From positions 1 through 50,828 of the forward strand of contig JAUVAR010000001.1 in NCBI GenBank assembly GCA_030591625.1: a stretch of DNA of 50,828 bases, read 5' to 3'. This DNA comes from Candidatus Zixiibacteriota bacterium. Lineage in GTDB: Bacteria > Zixibacteria > MSB-5A5 > GN15 > FEB-12. The translations under genes and the position numbers were made by a program. Each line of letters opens with the position of its first letter. Within the stretch, counting starts at the first letter, position 1. The notes under the pieces are model-generated. The model did not search any database. It saw only the letters and a list, made by a program, of their open reading frames with translations, and was not told the origin of the DNA. Of this stretch, positions 5,871 through 13,539 are shown piece after piece.

Positions 5871-7217
5871 ATGGAAGCATTTGACAATTTCTGGGCTGTC
5901 GCAGTTGATCTCGCATGGGGTCCATGGCTCGTTTGGCTACTTGTACTATCTGGCTTGTTTTTCACACTAAGGGGACGGTTCCTGCCATTTCGCGCTATTG
6001 GTCATGCTATTAATATTCTCAGGGGTAAATATGATCACGAATCCGATCCTGGCGAGATAACCCATTTTCAAGCGCTTTCATCGGCTCTCTCCGCAACTAT
6101 CGGAATGGGAAATATAGCAGGTGTTGCAATTGCAATTTCGCTGGGTGGCCCGGGAGCGATTTTCTGGATGTGGGTTGCCGGCCTTGTTGGCATGTCAACG
6201 AAGTTTTATACCTGTACTCTTTCTGTACTTTATCGCAAAAAAGATGAAAACGGTATTATGCAGGGTGGTCCGATGTACTACCTCGAAGTTGGACTTGGAA
6301 AAGCTTTCAAACCTCTTGCAATAATGTTTGCGGTCTGTGGTATGATCGGCTGTCTCACCTTGTTCCAAATGAACCAGCTTGCCGAATTAATCAAGGCAGA
6401 CTATGCGATAAGTAATGTCTGGACCGGACTCGCCTGCATGGTTATTGTCGCTGTAGTTATTCTTGGGGGAATCACACGAGTAGGGAAAGTCTCGGCAAGA
6501 GTTGTCCCGGCTATGTTCATAATGTACTTTGTCTCGGCTCTCTATATAGTGTTCATAAATATTGATGCAGTCCCCGGAATTATTGCCTCAATTTTTGAAG
6601 GAGCATTCGGTGGAGCTGCCGTTGCAGGTGGTGCAGCCGGTGTGGCAATGATGAAAGTAATGCAGATAGGGGTCCAAAGAGCTGCGTTTTCCAATGAAGC
6701 AGGAGTCGGTACGGCACCTATGGCTCACGGTGCAGCCAAAACGAAAGAGCCTATCAGAGAAGGACTTATCGCGATGTTGGGGCCATTTCTTGATACAAAT
6801 ATTGTTTGTACTCTAACAGCTATTGTAATTCTCTCATCAGGCCTTCTGAGTGGTGAACTTAATAACGATTCTGCAGTAGTAATAACTGTAAATGCATTCA
6901 CTCAGGCGATGGGTATGTTTGGCCGTTATTTGCTGACTCTCATAATTCTGCTCTTCTCAATAAGCACTATGATTTCATATTCTTACTATTCGGTCAAATG
7001 CGCTAAGTATTTGATGGGTGGCAAGATAGGCTCATATTACGTCTATATTTATTTGATTGCACTACCAATTGCCGCAGAACTCCCACCCAATACCGTTATT
7101 AACATTGTTGATACAGCTTTTGCAATGATGGCGATTCCGACCCTGATTGGAGCCCTTCTTTTGTCTGGAAAAGTGACTGACGCCCTCAAGGATTACTACG
7201 CTAGAATGGGGATATAG
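5871..7217 (+). CDS. Alanine/glycine:cation symporter (AGCS family)
   Basis: 448-aa polytopic membrane protein. It carries AGCS hallmarks (..ITHFQALSSALSATIGMGNIAGVAIAI..GGPGAIFWMW..SNEAGVGTAPMAHGAAKT..). Confidence 0.9.
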   Translation: MEAFDNFWAVAVDLAWGPWLVWLLVLSGLFFTLRGRFLPFRAIGHAINILRGKYDHESDPGEITHFQALSSALSATIGMGNIAGVAIAISLGGPGAIFWMWVAGLVGMSTKFYTCTLSVLYRKKDENGIMQGGPMYYLEVGLGKAFKPLAIMFAVCGMIGCLTLFQMNQLAELIKADYAISNVWTGLACMVIVAVVILGGITRVGKVSARVVPAMFIMYFVSALYIVFINIDAVPGIIASIFEGAFGGAAVAGGAAGVAMMKVMQIGVQRAAFSNEAGVGTAPMAHGAAKTKEPIREGLIAMLGPFLDTNIVCTLTAIVILSSGLLSGELNNDSAVVITVNAFTQAMGMFGRYLLTLIILLFSISTMISYSYYSVKCAKYLMGGKIGSYYVYIYLIALPIAAELPPNTVINIVDTAFAMMAIPTLIGALLLSGKVTDALKDYYARMGI

Positions 7218-7432
7218 GCTTCGCGAATTACGTAAGTGCTTGCTAATAAGCCCGTTACGGCAACCCAAGAGAATCATTGACTCAATTCGTTTATAGGTTA
7301 TATTGTATTGCTTGGTAACATTACCGTCGGGTCGCGATGACTTCCCGTGAGGGGTCATCTATAACGACTCAAAAGCCCCCGTCAAAATCCAGGTATAGCA
7401 AACCTTAAGACTCATGGGGTGAGAAGCCGCTT

Positions 7433-8542
7433 ATGAAAAAAGTTAGATATATACGAAACCTTGATCAGGTCAGCCAATTAACTGATGCCGAACGGACTGC
7501 ACTGGCAAAAGTTGAGAACAAATTCAAATTCAGAGCTAATGACTATTATCTCGGATTGATTAATTGGGATGATCCCAATGATCCAATCAGACGTATTATT
7601 GTCCCTCATACAGGTGAGCTCAAGGAATTTGGCGAACTTGATGCTTCAAATGAAGAAGCAAATTATGTCGCACCAGGGACTCAACATAAGTACACAAGCA
7701 CCGCTCTCTTGCTTTGCAATGAAATTTGTGGTGGCTACTGTCGTTTCTGTTTCCGTAAAAGATTATTCATGGATGGAAACGATGAAGCGTCTAATGACCT
7801 GACTGAAGGTATCAATTATATAAAAAGCCATCCTGAGATCAATAATGTTCTTCTAACCGGTGGTGATCCGTTCCTTCTTTCGACCAGACGACTCGAGTCA
7901 ATCATCCGACCGCTTCGCGAAATTGACCATATTGGAGTTATCCGAATCGGCACAAAGATGGCTGCATTTAATCCGTTTCGAATCACTCAGGATGATGAAC
8001 TTCTTGAGATGCTCTCGCAGTACTCGACTCCAAATAAGCGCATATATATAATGAACCATTTCAATGTTCCTCAGGAGCTAACTCCTCAGGCTTTTGAAGC
8101 GCTTGATTTGCTTAACCGAGCCGGAACTGTGACACTTAATCAGACTCCAATCCTCAGAGGCATTAACGACTCACCTGCGGTACTTTCAAAACTTATGAAT
8201 CTACTCAACGATGCAGGTGTGCATCCATACTATTTCTTCCAATGCAGGCCTACTGCCGGGAATGAAATATATGAGCTTCCAATTGTTGAATCGTATATGG
8301 CCTTGATAAAGGCAAAGAAAAATGTCAGCGGTCTGGCCAAACGAGCCAGAATGGTAATGTCGCACGATAGTGGTAAGATTGAAATTGTTGGTCTGACTGA
8401 TGATCATATCTATATGAAGTATCATCGCGCCAGATTTTCATCCGACGATGAACGGTTTATGATATACCATCGCGACGATAAGGCGTTTTGGTTTGATGAC
8501 CTTGTTCCTGCGGACGATTCGGAATATACCGAAACTGCATAA
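7433..8542 (+). CDS. KamA-family radical SAM aminomutase-like protein, paralog 1
   Basis: CGGYCRFC (CxxxCxxC) cluster motif and the LLTGGDP SAM motif. KamA-type N-terminal region FKFRANDYYLGLINWDDPNDPIRR, and QHKY..ALLL before the cluster. Candidate PLP lysine in SHDSGK. Confidence 0.85.
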   Translation: MKKVRYIRNLDQVSQLTDAERTALAKVENKFKFRANDYYLGLINWDDPNDPIRRIIVPHTGELKEFGELDASNEEANYVAPGTQHKYTSTALLLCNEICGGYCRFCFRKRLFMDGNDEASNDLTEGINYIKSHPEINNVLLTGGDPFLLSTRRLESIIRPLREIDHIGVIRIGTKMAAFNPFRITQDDELLEMLSQYSTPNKRIYIMNHFNVPQELTPQAFEALDLLNRAGTVTLNQTPILRGINDSPAVLSKLMNLLNDAGVHPYYFFQCRPTAGNEIYELPIVESYMALIKAKKNVSGLAKRARMVMSHDSGKIEIVGLTDDHIYMKYHRARFSSDDERFMIYHRDDKAFWFDDLVPADDSEYTETA

Positions 8543-8793
8543 TCCTGTTAATCAGAATAAATCTCATGTATTTTATGGCTCTATGGACTAATTTTATCTA
8601 TATTAGGGCATAAATTAGCAGGTAATATTATCCGCAAATGATTTATCTGATCTCTACGTATAATTTTTGCAGATGCCTCGCACCTGATACAATAGGATAT
8701 GGCTGATGGGGCTTGCGACTCCCCAATCGCAATAGAAATCAAAACCTGTTCATTCAGGATGGGGTGACTCCGGGCAAAACGTTAAGGAGTAAT

Positions 8794-9927
8794 ATGTCAG
8801 AACCAAGAATCAAATATCGCATCAACCTCAAGAAAATTGAACAGCTTTCTGTATCGCAAAGAACTGAACTTCTTCCAGTCGCACAAAAATTTAAATTTAG
8901 AGCAAACGACTATTATCTGTCGTTAATAAATTGGGATGATCCCGATGATCCGATTCGCCGGATTGTTATTCCTCAAGAAGGTGAGCTTGAGCCGTTTGGA
9001 CGGCTTGACGCATCTAATGAAGAATCAAACTATGTTGCCGCCGGCTGTCAACATAAGTACAAAGATACAGCACTATTATTGTGCAATGAAGTTTGCGGGG
9101 CATACTGTCGATTCTGTTTTCGAAAAAGACTTTTTCAGGACAACAACCATGAGGTGCTCTACGATGTCACACCCGGAATTGAATACATTGCCGCCCATCC
9201 TGAAATCAGTAACGTTCTTTTAACTGGTGGTGATCCGTTAATGCTAAAGACAGAACAGCTTGAAGATATTATTTCACGGTTGCGTGAGATCGATCATGTT
9301 TCGATCATTCGGCTCGGATCAAAAATCCCTGCCTTTAATCCGTATCGAATAATAAATGATCCCAAGTTGCTTGCTCTGTTCAAGAAATATTCTACTCGTG
9401 AAAAACGAATCTATGTCATGGCACACTTCAATCATCCGAACGAATTAACAGAGGTTTCTCGCGAGGGGCTTGATCTACTCATGCAGGCAGGAGTTATAAC
9501 TGTTAATCAGACACCAATTATTGGTGGCTTAAACGACAGCCCCGAAATACTTGCCGAGCTTATGAACAAATTATCTTATGCCGGTGTGCCCCCGTACTAT
9601 TTTTTCCAATGTCGTCCAACCGAAGGAAACGCGCCATTCGATATTCCACTTGTAAAAACTTTCAGAGTTATCGAAGAAGCGAAACGGTTAGTTTCAGGAT
9701 TAGCTAAACGTATCCGATTTGTAATGTCACACGAACTTGGGAAGATTGAAATGGTTGGTCTGACTGACCAGCATATTTATCTACGATTCCATCGCGCCAG
9801 ATACTCCGCAGATGAAGGTCGCTTTATGATTTTTCAACGCAATGATCAAGCCTTTTGGCTCGACGATCTTTCGCCAGTCAATGAAATCCCGGTTAGTGTA
9901 AGCGAGTACTGCCTGCAGGCGTCTTGA
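8794..9927 (+). CDS. KamA-family radical SAM aminomutase-like protein, paralog 2
   Basis: Roughly 60% identical by eye to paralog 1 (CGAYCRFC, LLTGGDP, SHELGK). I place the start at ATG 8794, which has an AAGGAG Shine-Dalgarno at 8784-8789 and aligns with the N-terminus of paralog 1. The ORF track's TTG at 8713 adds 27 unaligned residues. Confidence 0.85.
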   Translation: MSEPRIKYRINLKKIEQLSVSQRTELLPVAQKFKFRANDYYLSLINWDDPDDPIRRIVIPQEGELEPFGRLDASNEESNYVAAGCQHKYKDTALLLCNEVCGAYCRFCFRKRLFQDNNHEVLYDVTPGIEYIAAHPEISNVLLTGGDPLMLKTEQLEDIISRLREIDHVSIIRLGSKIPAFNPYRIINDPKLLALFKKYSTREKRIYVMAHFNHPNELTEVSREGLDLLMQAGVITVNQTPIIGGLNDSPEILAELMNKLSYAGVPPYYFFQCRPTEGNAPFDIPLVKTFRVIEEAKRLVSGLAKRIRFVMSHELGKIEMVGLTDQHIYLRFHRARYSADEGRFMIFQRNDQAFWLDDLSPVNEIPVSVSEYCLQAS

Positions 9928-9974: not shown

Positions 9975-10006
9975 AAAAAAGGCAGATCGCTCGAAACGAC
10001 CTGCCT
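9975..10006 (-). terminator. Rho-independent terminator of the serC operon
   Basis: On the minus strand: hairpin aggcag..(one internal mismatch)..ctgcct at 9980-10006, followed by a T-run (plus-strand A6 at 9975-9980). It lies 30 nt downstream of the serC stop. Confidence 0.6.
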
Positions 10007-10035
10007 TAGAATATATCAAAAATAATAACTACTGA

Positions 10036-11121
10036 TTAGTTAGCCTTCTTAAATGACTCCATAAATTCAACTAACTTCTCAACGCCCTCAAGAGTCATAG
10101 CATTGTAAATTGAAGCACGCACACCGCCAACCGAACGATGACCCTTAAGGCCGCTAAAACCTGCTGCACTAGCTTCGGCAATGAATTTCTTTTCGAGATC
10201 TTCGGAGGGAAGTCTGAAAGTCAAATTCATCCAACTGCGACTTTCGTCCTGAACTGTGCCTTTGTAATAATCAGGATTCAGATCAATCATCTGATAGATA
10301 CGTTCTTTCTTGGCGACATTCATTTTTTCAATCGCCGCAAGACCACCCTGCTCTTTAATCCACTCAGCGACAAGTCCAACGATATAAATCGCAAAAACTG
10401 GAGGTGTGTTATAGAGAGAATCTTTATTCGCATGAGTGCGATAGTCAAACATCGTTGGGATACCATCGTTGCACTTAACCAGCATATCTTCATGAACGAT
10501 TACAATCGTTACTCCGGCCGGTCCAAGATTTTTCTGCGCACCTGCATAAATTACCGAGAACTTGTTGAAGTCGAGTTGACGTGACAAAATATCGGATGAC
10601 ATATCACAAATCAAAGGGACCGAACCAGTATCAGGATATTCCTGAAACTGTGTTCCAAATATTGTGTTGTTCGATGTCATGTGCAAATAAGCTGCATCCG
10701 ATGGGAAGTCGATGTCGGCTGTTTTAGGAACGAATGTATGACCACCATCTTTCGATGAACCAGCCAGATGAACGGAACCGAAAGCCTTCGCTTCTTTGTA
10801 AGCTTTGCCGGCCCATGCACCAGTATCAACGTATGCGGCAGTCTTGCCCTTGCTCAGGAAATTCATTGGAATCATTGCAAACTGCGATGATGCACCACCG
10901 CCAACAAACAGGATTTTGTACTTATCGGAAAGTCCCATCAGTTCGCGCAACGAGTTCATAGTATTGTTATTGACCTCGTCAAACTCTTTTGAGCGATGCG
11001 ACATTTCGATCAATGACATTCCGGTACCATGATAGTCCAAAAATTCCGCCTGTACTTTTTTGAGAACATCAAGCGGCAGCGTTGACGGACCGGCGCTGAA
11101 ATTAAAAATTCGTTTAGCCAT
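10036..11121 (-). CDS. serC: 3-phosphoserine aminotransferase
   Basis: 361 aa. N-terminus MAKRIFNFSAGPSTLP, plus ..YAGAQKNLGPAGVT.. (PLP lysine region) and ..GHRSVGGVRASIYNA.., all canonical SerC motifs. Confidence 0.95.
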   Translation of the reverse strand: MAKRIFNFSAGPSTLPLDVLKKVQAEFLDYHGTGMSLIEMSHRSKEFDEVNNNTMNSLRELMGLSDKYKILFVGGGASSQFAMIPMNFLSKGKTAAYVDTGAWAGKAYKEAKAFGSVHLAGSSKDGGHTFVPKTADIDFPSDAAYLHMTSNNTIFGTQFQEYPDTGSVPLICDMSSDILSRQLDFNKFSVIYAGAQKNLGPAGVTIVIVHEDMLVKCNDGIPTMFDYRTHANKDSLYNTPPVFAIYIVGLVAEWIKEQGGLAAIEKMNVAKKERIYQMIDLNPDYYKGTVQDESRSWMNLTFRLPSEDLEKKFIAEASAAGFSGLKGHRSVGGVRASIYNAMTLEGVEKLVEFMESFKKAN

Positions 11122-11155
11122 ATGAGGACCTCTTCTTTACTTTCAGGAGTCGCTC

Positions 11156-12037
11156 TTAGCGGCTCGCACTATATTCTTCAATCAACTTCTCACAAATTTC
11201 ACCGATGCGTATCATATTCTCCTTGGAAGATGCACCCAGGTGTGGCATGAGAAGAGTCTTTTCACATTTCAATAACGGACAGTCTGCGTCCGGTGGATCA
11301 GAATACCATACGTCGGTCGCATAGCCTGACAGCTTTCCAGATTCCAACGCTGCGACGATATCTTCTTCTACGATACACTTACCGCGTCCGGTATTGATTA
11401 ACCAGGCGCCATCTTTGAATTTGGAAATCTGTTCTTTATTAATCAAACCTTTTGTTTCATCGGTCAAGGGCATGTGCATCGAAACATAATCTGCTTCACC
11501 CAGTGCTGTATCCAGATCGGTTTTCATTTCTGCAACGGGGGATGACTTAACAAACGGGTCATACCCAATCACTTTCATTCCGAACGCTTTCGCTCTTTCA
11601 CCAAGAGCCGAACCGATACGACCCATACCGAGCACAGCAATTGTTTTGCCCATCAACTCAGTTCGTCCAAGCTCTTTTTTGAGCCACTTACCTTCGCGCA
11701 TTGAAGCATCGGCACGACCAACATGATTGGTAATTCCAATCATCAATGCAAACGCTACTTCGGCTACTGCAACCGTTGAAGCATCAGCTGTATTAAAAAC
11801 CTGAATACCTTTTGTCTTGGCATATTCACGATCTACGTTGTCAAGACCAACACCACCTCGAATGACAAGTTTTAGATTCGGAGCACCATCAATATATTCT
11901 TTCGTTACTTTTGTTTTACTACGAATCAAAACTACTTCCGCGTCAGCCACGCGGTTTTTGTCGTCGGTCACTTCACCAAACCGTGCAAGCTTCTCAGGCA
12001 AAGTAGCTCCGAAAGCATCTGAAATTAGAATAAGCAT
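11156..12037 (-). CDS. serA: D-3-phosphoglycerate dehydrogenase, short form without an ACT domain (D-2-hydroxyacid dehydrogenase family)
   Basis: 293 aa. NAD-binding GMGRIGSALGERAKAFGMKV. Catalytic region ..NTGRG..D..AL.., and PHLGASSKE containing the catalytic His. Sits directly between serC and DUF1015. Confidence 0.75.
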   Translation of the reverse strand: MLILISDAFGATLPEKLARFGEVTDDKNRVADAEVVLIRSKTKVTKEYIDGAPNLKLVIRGGVGLDNVDREYAKTKGIQVFNTADASTVAVAEVAFALMIGITNHVGRADASMREGKWLKKELGRTELMGKTIAVLGMGRIGSALGERAKAFGMKVIGYDPFVKSSPVAEMKTDLDTALGEADYVSMHMPLTDETKGLINKEQISKFKDGAWLINTGRGKCIVEEDIVAALESGKLSGYATDVWYSDPPDADCPLLKCEKTLLMPHLGASSKENMIRIGEICEKLIEEYSASR

Positions 12038-12055
12038 ATTATATTTCTCCTGTCT

Positions 12056-13300
12056 CTATTCCGTTAAGAGATTTACCACCATCCCGGACCGAAGCTTAGG
12101 TTCGAACCAGGTCGATTTGGGTGGCATAACCTCGCCAGCGTCGGCAACATTTAGAAGTTGTTCAATCGACGTCGGATAAAGTGAAAACGCTATTTTGAAT
12201 TTACCTGAATCAACAAGGCGAACGAGTTCTTTAACACCCCGAATTCCACCTATGAAATCAATTCTCTTATCTGTCTTGGGATCATCAATACCAAGAAGTG
12301 GGGCAATAAAATTGTCTGCTAACACAGAAGCATCGATCGATTTCGTCGGATGCTTCGCATCAAAACTTCCATCTTTCGCACCAAGAAGATACCACTGACC
12401 GCCCGCATAAATACCAAACGAATGCAATTCATCGGGTTCAACTGGAATATCAGTTTTATTTACAATGAAATGTTCTTCGGCAAGCTTCATCAGTTCGTCA
12501 ATTGTATGACCATTGAGGTCATTCACGACACGATTGTACGGGAGAATACGAAGTTCATCATCGGCAAAAAGTACATTGAGAAAATAATTGGCCGGTTCGT
12601 CAGCTCCGTAGGAAGGGTTTTCTTCGCGTCGCCGTCTGAGAATTTCTGAGGCTGCCTGCGAGCGATGATGTCCGTCGGCAATATATAAAGAATCAAGTTT
12701 CGCAAATGTATCAATAATTTTTTTAATGTTTTCGGAATCAGACACAACCCATATTTCATGCTTAACATTATCGTCTGCTTTGAACGCAGTTTCGGGATCT
12801 GCTATCATGATCGTTTCAAACAAAGAACGCAATTCATCATTGGCTCGAAAAGTAGAAAAGACTGGTCCTACCTGCGCCTGTAAGTGATCAATATGATCAG
12901 CCCGATCATTTACTTTTACCGGACGAGTATGTTCATGCTTTTTGATAATACCATCGTTATATTCATCAACCGATGTAACACTAACCAATCCAGTTTGACT
13001 TCGTTCTTTCCATGTTAGCCTGTACAGATAGAACGAACGTTCGGTGTCACGAATCATAAGATTCTCACGAATCAGTCTTGCCAAGTTTTGTTTACTACGT
13101 TCGTACACTTCGGGACCATAAGGACTGGCGGAGGCATCAAACTCAAGCTCAGCTTTATTGACTCTTAAAAATGAATTCGGATTGTCCGCCGCCAGGGCAC
13201 GAGCTTCTTCCGAGCTCAGAACATCATAAGGCGGGGAGGCGACATCGCGGGCGATGTCACGTCGGGGTCTTAAACCTCTAAAGGGCATTACTTTGGCCAT
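12056..13300 (-). CDS. DUF1015 family protein (function unknown)
   Basis: N-terminus ..MPFRGLRPRRDIARDVASPPYDVLSSEEAR.., plus ..YIADGHHR.. and ..MPPKSTWFEPKLRSG.., all characteristic of DUF1015. The start is probably Met 9, 10 or 14 of the tracked ORF, which runs 12056-13327. Confidence 0.8.
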   Translation of the reverse strand: MAKVMPFRGLRPRRDIARDVASPPYDVLSSEEARALAADNPNSFLRVNKAELEFDASASPYGPEVYERSKQNLARLIRENLMIRDTERSFYLYRLTWKERSQTGLVSVTSVDEYNDGIIKKHEHTRPVKVNDRADHIDHLQAQVGPVFSTFRANDELRSLFETIMIADPETAFKADDNVKHEIWVVSDSENIKKIIDTFAKLDSLYIADGHHRSQAASEILRRRREENPSYGADEPANYFLNVLFADDELRILPYNRVVNDLNGHTIDELMKLAEEHFIVNKTDIPVEPDELHSFGIYAGGQWYLLGAKDGSFDAKHPTKSIDASVLADNFIAPLLGIDDPKTDKRIDFIGGIRGVKELVRLVDSGKFKIAFSLYPTSIEQLLNVADAGEVMPPKSTWFEPKLRSGMVVNLLTE

Positions 13301-13539
13301 CATATCACCTATAATCAAAAAGCGCAATTTGTGACTTATTTCACAGTCCGGCCAGTATAATGAAAAGGGCCAATAAACCCAACCGAAATCGGAAATTCTT
13401 GCATAGTCTTATGGCCTGAGAATTGAATTTGAAATTTAAGGATTATGTTAACAAAAACTGCCTAATGTCTGGTTATTTAGGTCTTTTCTGATTGGGTAAG
13501 AATATGATAACTCTATTTCGATGTATATTAGCCTGCTCT

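Follow-up and report, generated by a model that had tools for sequence, protein, structure and literature searches.

The 50,828-nucleotide (nt) stretch of DNA analysed here (the window) is a contig, JAUVAR010000001.1, of a Zixibacteria metagenome-assembled genome (MAG; assembly GCA_030591625.1, G000 in our comparisons) that is 79% complete, and it carries in tandem two genes, copy A and copy B, of the KamA family of radical S-adenosylmethionine (SAM) and pyridoxal phosphate (PLP) enzymes. Both belong to a large, widespread orphan lineage of this family, and the novelty lies in that clade rather than in the locus of the window. According to our alignments, the aspartates that bind lysine in lysine 2,3-aminomutase (LAM), Asp293 and Asp330, are replaced in the clade by an invariant arginine and an invariant methionine (Arg272 and Met309 of copy A; hereafter the R/M signature). 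The reading that we prefer, with a probability that falls somewhat short of even, is that R/M enzymes would be 2,3-aminomutases for an acidic amino acid. The genes in question are as follows:

5871..7217, plus strand: gene for a transporter of the alanine/glycine:cation symporter (AGCS) family, 448 amino acids (aa), assigned by TIGR00835 and PF01235
7433..8542, plus strand: copy A, a KamA-family radical SAM/PLP gene, 369 aa, assigned by TIGR00238, alignment to PDB entry 2A5H and AlphaFold2/Foldseek
8794..9927, plus strand: copy B, a KamA-family radical SAM/PLP gene, 377 aa from its ATG, assigned by TIGR00238 and identity to copy A

Copies A and B are both intact and share 61% identity over 372 columns, and the upstream gene product matches TIGR00835 with 436.6 bits (cut-off 272.65, residues 16-442) and PF01235 with 404.9 bits. 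The initial annotation, made by eye from the sequence, had thus described the layout correctly as two same-strand KamA-like genes about 60% identical behind an AGCS gene, and its estimate of a spacer of about 215-250 nt before each was equally close: the spacers measure 215 nt (7218-7432) and 251 nt (8543-8793). The reading frame of copy B extends upstream to a TTG at 8713, but its start is most likely the ATG at 8794, which has AAGGAG 8 nt 5' of it, is the start in the database gene call P0064 and agrees with the N-termini of homologues.

Both copies pass the general KamA model narrowly (TIGR00238, cut-off 199.2 bits), copy A with 203.3 bits and copy B with 213 bits. On the models for individual specificities their scores stay below the cut-offs: 211.9 and 222.9 bits on the lysine/AblA model TIGR03820 (cut-off 525.4), 212.9 and 210.9 on TIGR04368 for the glutamate 2,3-aminomutase Eam (650), 203.5 and 205.9 on TIGR04468 for arginine 2,3-aminomutase of the BlsG type (600), and 170.5 and 177.5 on the EpmB model TIGR03821 (369.3); the AblA-like-2 model (cut-off 396) also gives values within the flat range of about 200-223 bits. 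As a yardstick, the genuine AblA of a different Zixibacterium reaches 769.7 bits on the AblA model, and Escherichia coli EpmB scores 534 bits on its own model and 200-250 bits on non-cognate ones. Given these flat scores and calibrations, we infer that the distance of copies A and B from any characterised KamA enzyme is about that between EpmB and LAM. The AlphaFold2 model of copy A (predicted local distance difference test score, 88) retrieves the LAM of Clostridium subterminale, 2A5H, in a Foldseek search with a template modelling (TM) score of 0.77 over 360 columns, with the next matches below 0.46, and LAM is the only close structural relative of the model. The copies share about 30-37% identity with LAM over residues 4-300, including the N-terminal YYLxLI..DPxDPIR domain.

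The cofactor sites of LAM are retained, as the initial annotation had already recognised from the motifs. The CxxxCxxC cluster motif (C99, C103 and C106 in copy A) and GGDP (143-146) have equivalents in copy B and occupy columns that are invariant in the family alignment, and the candidate PLP lysine ends SHDSGK315 of copy A and the corresponding SHELGK of copy B. The active-site signature of copy B (QCRPT, FVMSHELGK) matches that of copy A. R108 of copy A aligns with Arg134 of LAM, which we take to be the residue that binds the substrate alpha-carboxylate. Both genes are thus predicted to encode functional PLP- and SAM-dependent radical enzymes of the KamA fold. The pocket for the substrate side chain differs. 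In phmmer and family-profile alignments to 2A5H, the LAM segment PYYIYQCD293LSLG aligns with PYYFFQCR272PTAGN of copy A, and hhalign against the genuine AblA gives the same register, so that the Arg first placed by eye at the Asp293 position of both copies now rests on three methods. The HMMER and hhalign alignments stop at SGLAKR304, equivalent to SGL(C/A)VP325 of LAM; when the register is continued ungapped along the next strand, M307-V-M309-S-H falls on V328-V-D330-A-P and Met309 takes the place of Asp330. Where the initial annotation had read Met or Ser at this position, Met stands in both copies and the Ser alternative falls away. Neither specificity position is therefore occupied by Asp in a proper alignment. 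Tyr290 of LAM is replaced as well, by Phe269. Lys315 would correspond to Lys337 of LAM if the PLP loop of copy A is one residue shorter (SHxxGK versus APGGGGK); in the model of copy A, strand 307-311 is followed by strand 314-321, with K315 at the start of the latter and on the same C-terminal beta-hairpin as in LAM. The four zinc ligands of LAM are absent, with Ser at the Cys268 position, no C-terminal CxCxxC and no Cys motif past residue 330, and the C-terminus is about 40-50 aa shorter, which extends the earlier remark that the zinc-binding tail is missing. Among 119 family members, R272, P273, T274, N277, M309, S310, H311, G314 and K315 are at least 97% conserved, giving a distinct and invariant pocket signature, QCRPTxGN ... 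MSHxxGK.

This signature marks a broad clade. A database search returned about 6,800 significant KamA-type matches, the top 120 of which are all about 370-400 aa long and 58-69% identical to copy A, and a scan of species-representative genomes found 543 relatives, the best 80 all being 52-65% identical to it. These 80 come from Zixibacteria, Nitrospinota, Planctomycetota, Acidobacteriota (Vicinamibacterales), Pseudomonadota (including Rhodocyclaceae), Calditrichota, KSB1, Deferribacterota, Nitrospirota, Myxococcota, Actinomycetota and Melainabacteria, and from archaea (ANME-2/Methanosarcinales and Methanoregulaceae). Overall the clade spans at least 12 phyla at 54-71% identity. In a maximum-likelihood tree it is monophyletic with 100/99 support, its stem measuring 1.1 changes per site, and it stands apart from LAM/AblA, a protein of the Asp/Asp (D/D) type, an Eam-like protein, two more odd types, a clade of 600-aa proteins with Lys/Asn (K/N) at the specificity positions, and EpmB. 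Standing in for Eam in this tree is a Zixibacterial protein, Eam-like with a score of 569 bits against the model's cut-off of 650, and the BlsG family, which has no sequence in the tree, is excluded by model score only. The question raised by the initial annotation of whether the pair might sit inside the EpmB or LAM clades is thereby answered: neither copy belongs to the LAM/AblA, EpmB or Eam-like clades. Among 285 Zixibacteria genomes the R/M type occurs in roughly 100, about eight of which have two copies, unlinked except in the window.

The archaeal members (L059, L097, L099, L101, L104 and L105, from MAGs of Methanoregulaceae, ANME-2/Methanogaster and Methanosarcinales) are 63-67% identical to proteins of KSB1, Nitrospinaceae and Krumholzibacteria. 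Because their branches lie among bacterial ones in the tree, a transfer of the R/M gene from bacteria to archaea is suggested. A truncated R/M relative of 326 aa, with the motifs QCRPAIGNE and WVMSNSTGK and without the N-terminal domain, was also seen in genome G010 (L033:1291-2271, minus strand); judged by score only (about 145 bits, E about 1e-40 to 1e-44), it is apparently the sole KamA-type gene in about ten genomes of genus g46 (G120-G129).

By analogy with LAM, the reduced [4Fe-4S] cluster of an R/M enzyme would cleave SAM to a 5'-deoxyadenosyl radical, which would take a hydrogen from C3 of an alpha-amino acid held as its PLP aldimine; the amino group would then move from C2 to C3 via an azacyclopropylcarbinyl radical to give a beta-amino acid. 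Because an invariant cationic Arg and a Met occupy the specificity positions while the alpha-carboxylate Arg and the mapped cofactor motifs are kept, the substrate may be a free alpha-amino acid whose anionic side chain Arg272 would hold, the likeliest case being conversion of L-glutamate to beta-glutamate. In characterised KamA enzymes, D/D marks specificity for lysine and K/N specificity for glutamate (PMC3965090). The Eam of Clostridioides difficile, in which the first Asp has likewise become a cationic residue, offers a precedent for such a switch towards an acidic substrate (PMC3965090), and our reading of glutamate rests on analogy with this Lys/Asn pocket; we regard glutamate in particular as possible, if on the unlikely side. 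Eam has Lys/Asn where the copies have Arg/Met, and the Eam-like Zixibacterial protein branches elsewhere, so that orthology to Eam is excluded as far as the sequences tell, and glutamate as a substrate is not thereby excluded.

A gene neighbour in one part of the clade hints in the same direction. In a subclade of Gammaproteobacteria/Rhodocyclaceae and Planctomycetota (tree support 100/96), the R/M gene stands beside a gene for a class Ib aminotransferase of 434 aa that resembles aspartate aminotransferase (AspAT). Either gene order occurs, with the aminotransferase gene 7-21 nt upstream or else downstream, where it overlaps in one locus and lies about 0.5-1 kb away in two. The loci are:

L006/L043: 5670-6974
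L051: 4683-5987
L053: 4684-5988
L063: 7146-8507
L083
L108

These aminotransferases are 58-88% identical between phyla, and their best solved relatives are AspATs of the Thermus type. They also have Lys at the aligned position of an AspAT lysine that we take to be the residue recognising the distal carboxylate. By this analogy, the neighbour is a lead, and only a hint, towards dicarboxylic amino acids as substrates.

Several observations weigh against an acidic substrate, or against glutamate specifically. The aminotransferase gene is absent from G000 and most R/M carriers, and it occurs, unlinked, in 4 of 31 related Zixibacteria genomes; apart from it, no family-wide operon partner was found among 84 homologous loci. 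KamA proteins with the Eam-like K/N signature co-occur with the R/M type in at least four Zixibacteria genomes, and it is then hard to see the two types both as simple glutamate 2,3-aminomutases; for the most part the R/M and long K/N clades are found in different families. For beta-glutamate in methanogens, moreover, early nuclear magnetic resonance labelling excluded a route through a glutamate aminomutase, according to a 2005 review (PMC1224877). Finally, Arg and Met are both bulky and might just as well serve to fill up the pocket around a small neutral substrate.

The proteins of the K/N clade are about 600 aa long, with an N-terminal extension of about 180 aa (L011:1288-3084, minus strand; L122:682-2130, plus strand; L128). 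They have Lys at the Asp293 position (YYTFNCKGK) and Asn at the Asp330 position (VYNVPGLGK), and their score on the Eam model, about 236 bits, stays far below the cut-off of 650. Carriers are G021, G027, G030 and about 50 other Zixibacteria, and the K/N and R/M types occur together in G190, G193, G253 and G255.

That the copies might be ordinary but divergent lysine 2,3-aminomutases, of the KamA/AblA type or similar to EpmB, is suggested by their LAM-like fold and cofactor motifs and by the many family entries labelled "lysine 2,3-aminomutase" by JGI. We nevertheless consider this highly improbable. Both lysine-binding aspartates are replaced, and by invariant residues; the scores are 212-223 bits against a cut-off of 525 for AblA and 170-178 against 369 for EpmB; and the R/M clade is separate in the tree. 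EpmB (YjeK) is itself a short KamA-family protein without the zinc tail and about equally distant from LAM, but it keeps Asp at the 293 position (YYLHVLD) and works with EpmA and EF-P. The earlier remark that the neighbourhood holds neither an ablB-type gene nor an EF-P/EpmA context can be extended to the 79% complete genome, in which the best match to the AblB model reaches 23 bits (cut-off 205) and that to EpmA (genX) 108 bits (cut-off 287); no efp gene lies near the locus. One Zixibacterium, moreover, has a genuine AblA (770 bits) plus a divergent short paralogue with the R/M signature, which indicates that the R/M type is a separate lineage and not the version of LAM that this phylum happens to possess. 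From the Arg/Met pocket and the separate clade, the initial proposal of an acidic or small neutral amino acid, and not lysine, still appears to be the most reasonable one.

A small neutral substrate, for example alanine converted to or from beta-alanine, would have Arg272 and Met309 fill the space of the lysine side chain, and the AGCS symporter would supply or remove the amino acid. The AGCS gene does lie directly upstream in the window and in three related genera. Engineered alanine 2,3-aminomutases (Cargill; from Bacillus subtilis LAM and Porphyromonas gingivalis LAM) also resemble the R/M type in having lost the second Asp, with D331G/D339H at this position as the route to them (PMC9850924). 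They were made in the laboratory from true LAMs and retain the first Asp, whereas the copies have lost both. Filling space, however, needs no invariant cationic Arg. We know of no natural counterpart of the engineered enzymes. PanD is present in 30 and PanC in all 31 of the related genomes, G000 included, without any complementarity between PanD and the R/M gene; a required role in beta-alanine/coenzyme A supply was accordingly rejected, as nearly all relatives have PanD/PanC with or without an R/M gene.

The evidence from the transporter is similarly thin on inspection. AGCS orthologues (66-74% identity) occur in 18 of the 31 related genomes and stand beside a KamA-like gene in four (G000, G001, G006 and G015), the only ones with the order AGCS then KamA-like; among the 84 loci the adjacency is seen in two, which belong to these relatives too. 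Upstream of the AGCS gene, a phosphatase gene and a kinase gene are shared by the window and the same-genus genome, so the adjacency is part of a larger syntenic block. Presence of an AGCS orthologue shows no association with presence of an R/M gene (counts 11/7/6/7; Fisher p=0.48), and spacers of 215-290 nt indicate that the genes are not translationally coupled. The suggestion in the initial annotation that the transporter imports the substrate or exports the product is thus unsupported, the link being weak, and a neighbourhood conserved in 4 of 31 relatives goes part of the way towards what the initial annotation itself named as refuting it. In a few related genera synteny places the AGCS gene beside the R/M gene, without making it a proven partner. 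With the adjacency limited to one small lineage, a small neutral substrate seems unlikely to us.

More room must be left for another substrate altogether, such as 2-aminoadipate, methionine, serine/threonine or a beta-amino acid used catabolically, or for PLP-radical chemistry beyond a 2,3-amino shift. We consider this a serious possibility, if clearly below even. The residue equivalent to Asp293 varies among Zixibacteria KamA paralogues (D, K, E, I/F or R), as if the family explores many specificities, and the pathway is unconstrained by any conserved operon partner. Against different chemistry stands the retention of all mappable catalytic and cofactor residues of LAM, which favours the same type of reaction, and against a different substrate the Arg itself, which is best explained by an anionic group; an acidic amino acid therefore remains our preferred reading. 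The paralogues L121, L123/L124, L125 and L126 (from G202, G164/G165, G251 and G205) have varied motifs at the Asp293 position, and examples seen there are QCDPISG, NCKKLQG, YCEPAPG, QFIPTKW and QCRPT; no equivalog cut-off is reached except by true AblA. From these sequences, several orphan KamA specificities seem to exist within Zixibacteria.

To our knowledge, the characterised specificities of the KamA family number just four: lysine in two stereochemistries, glutamate and arginine. Our literature searches found no paper on a characterised member of the R/M clade. That the clade represents a natural 2,3-aminomutase for a substrate used by no characterised KamA enzyme has, in our estimation, close to an even chance, if not quite one. 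Should an acidic substrate be borne out, the R/M enzymes could constitute a second, independently evolved glutamate 2,3-aminomutase supplying beta-glutamate in many marine and sediment microbes. In a search for cultured carriers with osmolyte profiles, the best 120 matches to an archaeal member were all MAGs. Alternatively, the clade could contain an aminomutase, the first natural one of its kind, acting on a different acidic or small amino acid (alanine, 2-aminoadipate). Either outcome would point to an unrecognised, widespread beta-amino-acid metabolism encoded by a clade that numbers thousands of members across 12 or more bacterial phyla and the ANME-2 and Methanoregulaceae archaea. Knowing the substrate would put right thousands of annotations that now read "lysine 2,3-aminomutase" and would add a natural beta-amino-acid route usable in biocatalysis, where routes to beta-amino acids and 3-hydroxypropionate now use engineered LAMs; it might also bear on where beta-glutamate osmolytes come from. 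The tandem pair and its transporter neighbour, by comparison, are of local interest only.

Within the R/M tree, copy A groups with P0004 (the single copy of the complete genome of the same genus), L030 and P0046 (support 99/95), and copy B with P0078/P0079 of other Zixibacteria (100/99). Forcing A and B to be sisters costs 62.5 log-likelihood units (approximately unbiased test, p=0.012, for a grouping named after the tree had been seen). Because the copies are not sisters, the pair is, on this tree, not a recent local duplication, and its members come from different Zixibacterial subclades; it arose either by an old duplication with differential loss or by insertion of a second lineage beside the first. 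Copies A and B would accordingly be isozymes of two old Zixibacterial lineages of the R/M clade that are now adjacent. A partial gene 5' of the copy-B orthologue in L120 was considered as a possible copy-A-type gene and rejected as unrelated.

The initial annotation had proposed that the pair might form a heteromer or have two specificities. Two specificities find no support: of 127 columns at least 85% conserved in the family, both copies keep all but a few, where the changes are conservative, and the copy-B subclade differs consistently at two conserved columns only, M113Q and Y330F. An obligatory heteromer, which would be compatible with any of the substrates discussed, would suit the adjacency of the genes on one strand, the tetrameric state of LAM (title of PDB 2A5H and literature), and the loss of the subunit-linking zinc site of LAM, as a result of which the interface must differ. 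It is nonetheless quite improbable. The tandem arrangement was found in the window only, among the 84 loci and 285 Zixibacteria genomes; about nine in ten carriers have a single copy, and the copies of the few two-copy carriers are unlinked; copy-B orthologues are solitary elsewhere; and each gene of the pair has its own spacer and promoter-like site. Since each has its own promoter-like region, the copies probably differ in regulation rather than in predicted chemistry. The sites concerned, with a hairpin downstream of copy B, are:

7277..7304, plus strand: promoter-like site 5' of copy A, TTGACT-16-TATATT, 10/12 consensus match, inside spacer 7218-7432
8666..8693, plus strand: promoter-like site 5' of copy B, TTTGCA-16-TACAAT with TG, 9/12 consensus match, inside spacer 8543-8793
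9979..10007, minus strand: GC-rich hairpin lying between copy B and serC, which converge, 13-bp stem, then a T-run on the minus strand

The two promoter-like sites are pattern matches only, from a scan of the region that gave 14 sites where 12.1 are expected by chance. A TTGC..TATAAT block resembling the site of copy B also aligns in the leader of L117, an orthologue of copy B. On this sequence evidence, separate transcription of copies A and B is plausible. A search of both spacers against Rfam gave no match at the gathering threshold nor at E<=5, and neither has an unusually stable fold (z=-0.9 for the spacer of copy A and z=-0.3 for that of copy B). A riboswitch or leader RNA in the spacers was rejected on these grounds and because orthologue leaders align only around the promoter-like block. 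The nonamer ATGGGGTGA is present in both leaders, at 7415-7423 and 8760-8768, 10 nt and 26 nt ahead of the respective start codons, and is probably either a purine run resembling a Shine-Dalgarno sequence or a coincidence. The GTG within ATGGGGTGA of leader B is in frame with copy B and could be an alternative start.

The hairpin at 9979..10007 was called as a minus-strand terminator, with no plus-strand T-run after it, and probably ends serC. It is shared by copy B with the convergent operon DUF1015 - short serA - serC (10036-13327, minus strand). The same-genus genome has a different region 3' of its KamA-like gene, so the juxtaposition of copy B and serC is local. At the other end of the locus, 5' of the AGCS gene and on the opposite strand, lie genes for an FHA-GAF-PP2C phosphatase and a Ser/Thr kinase.

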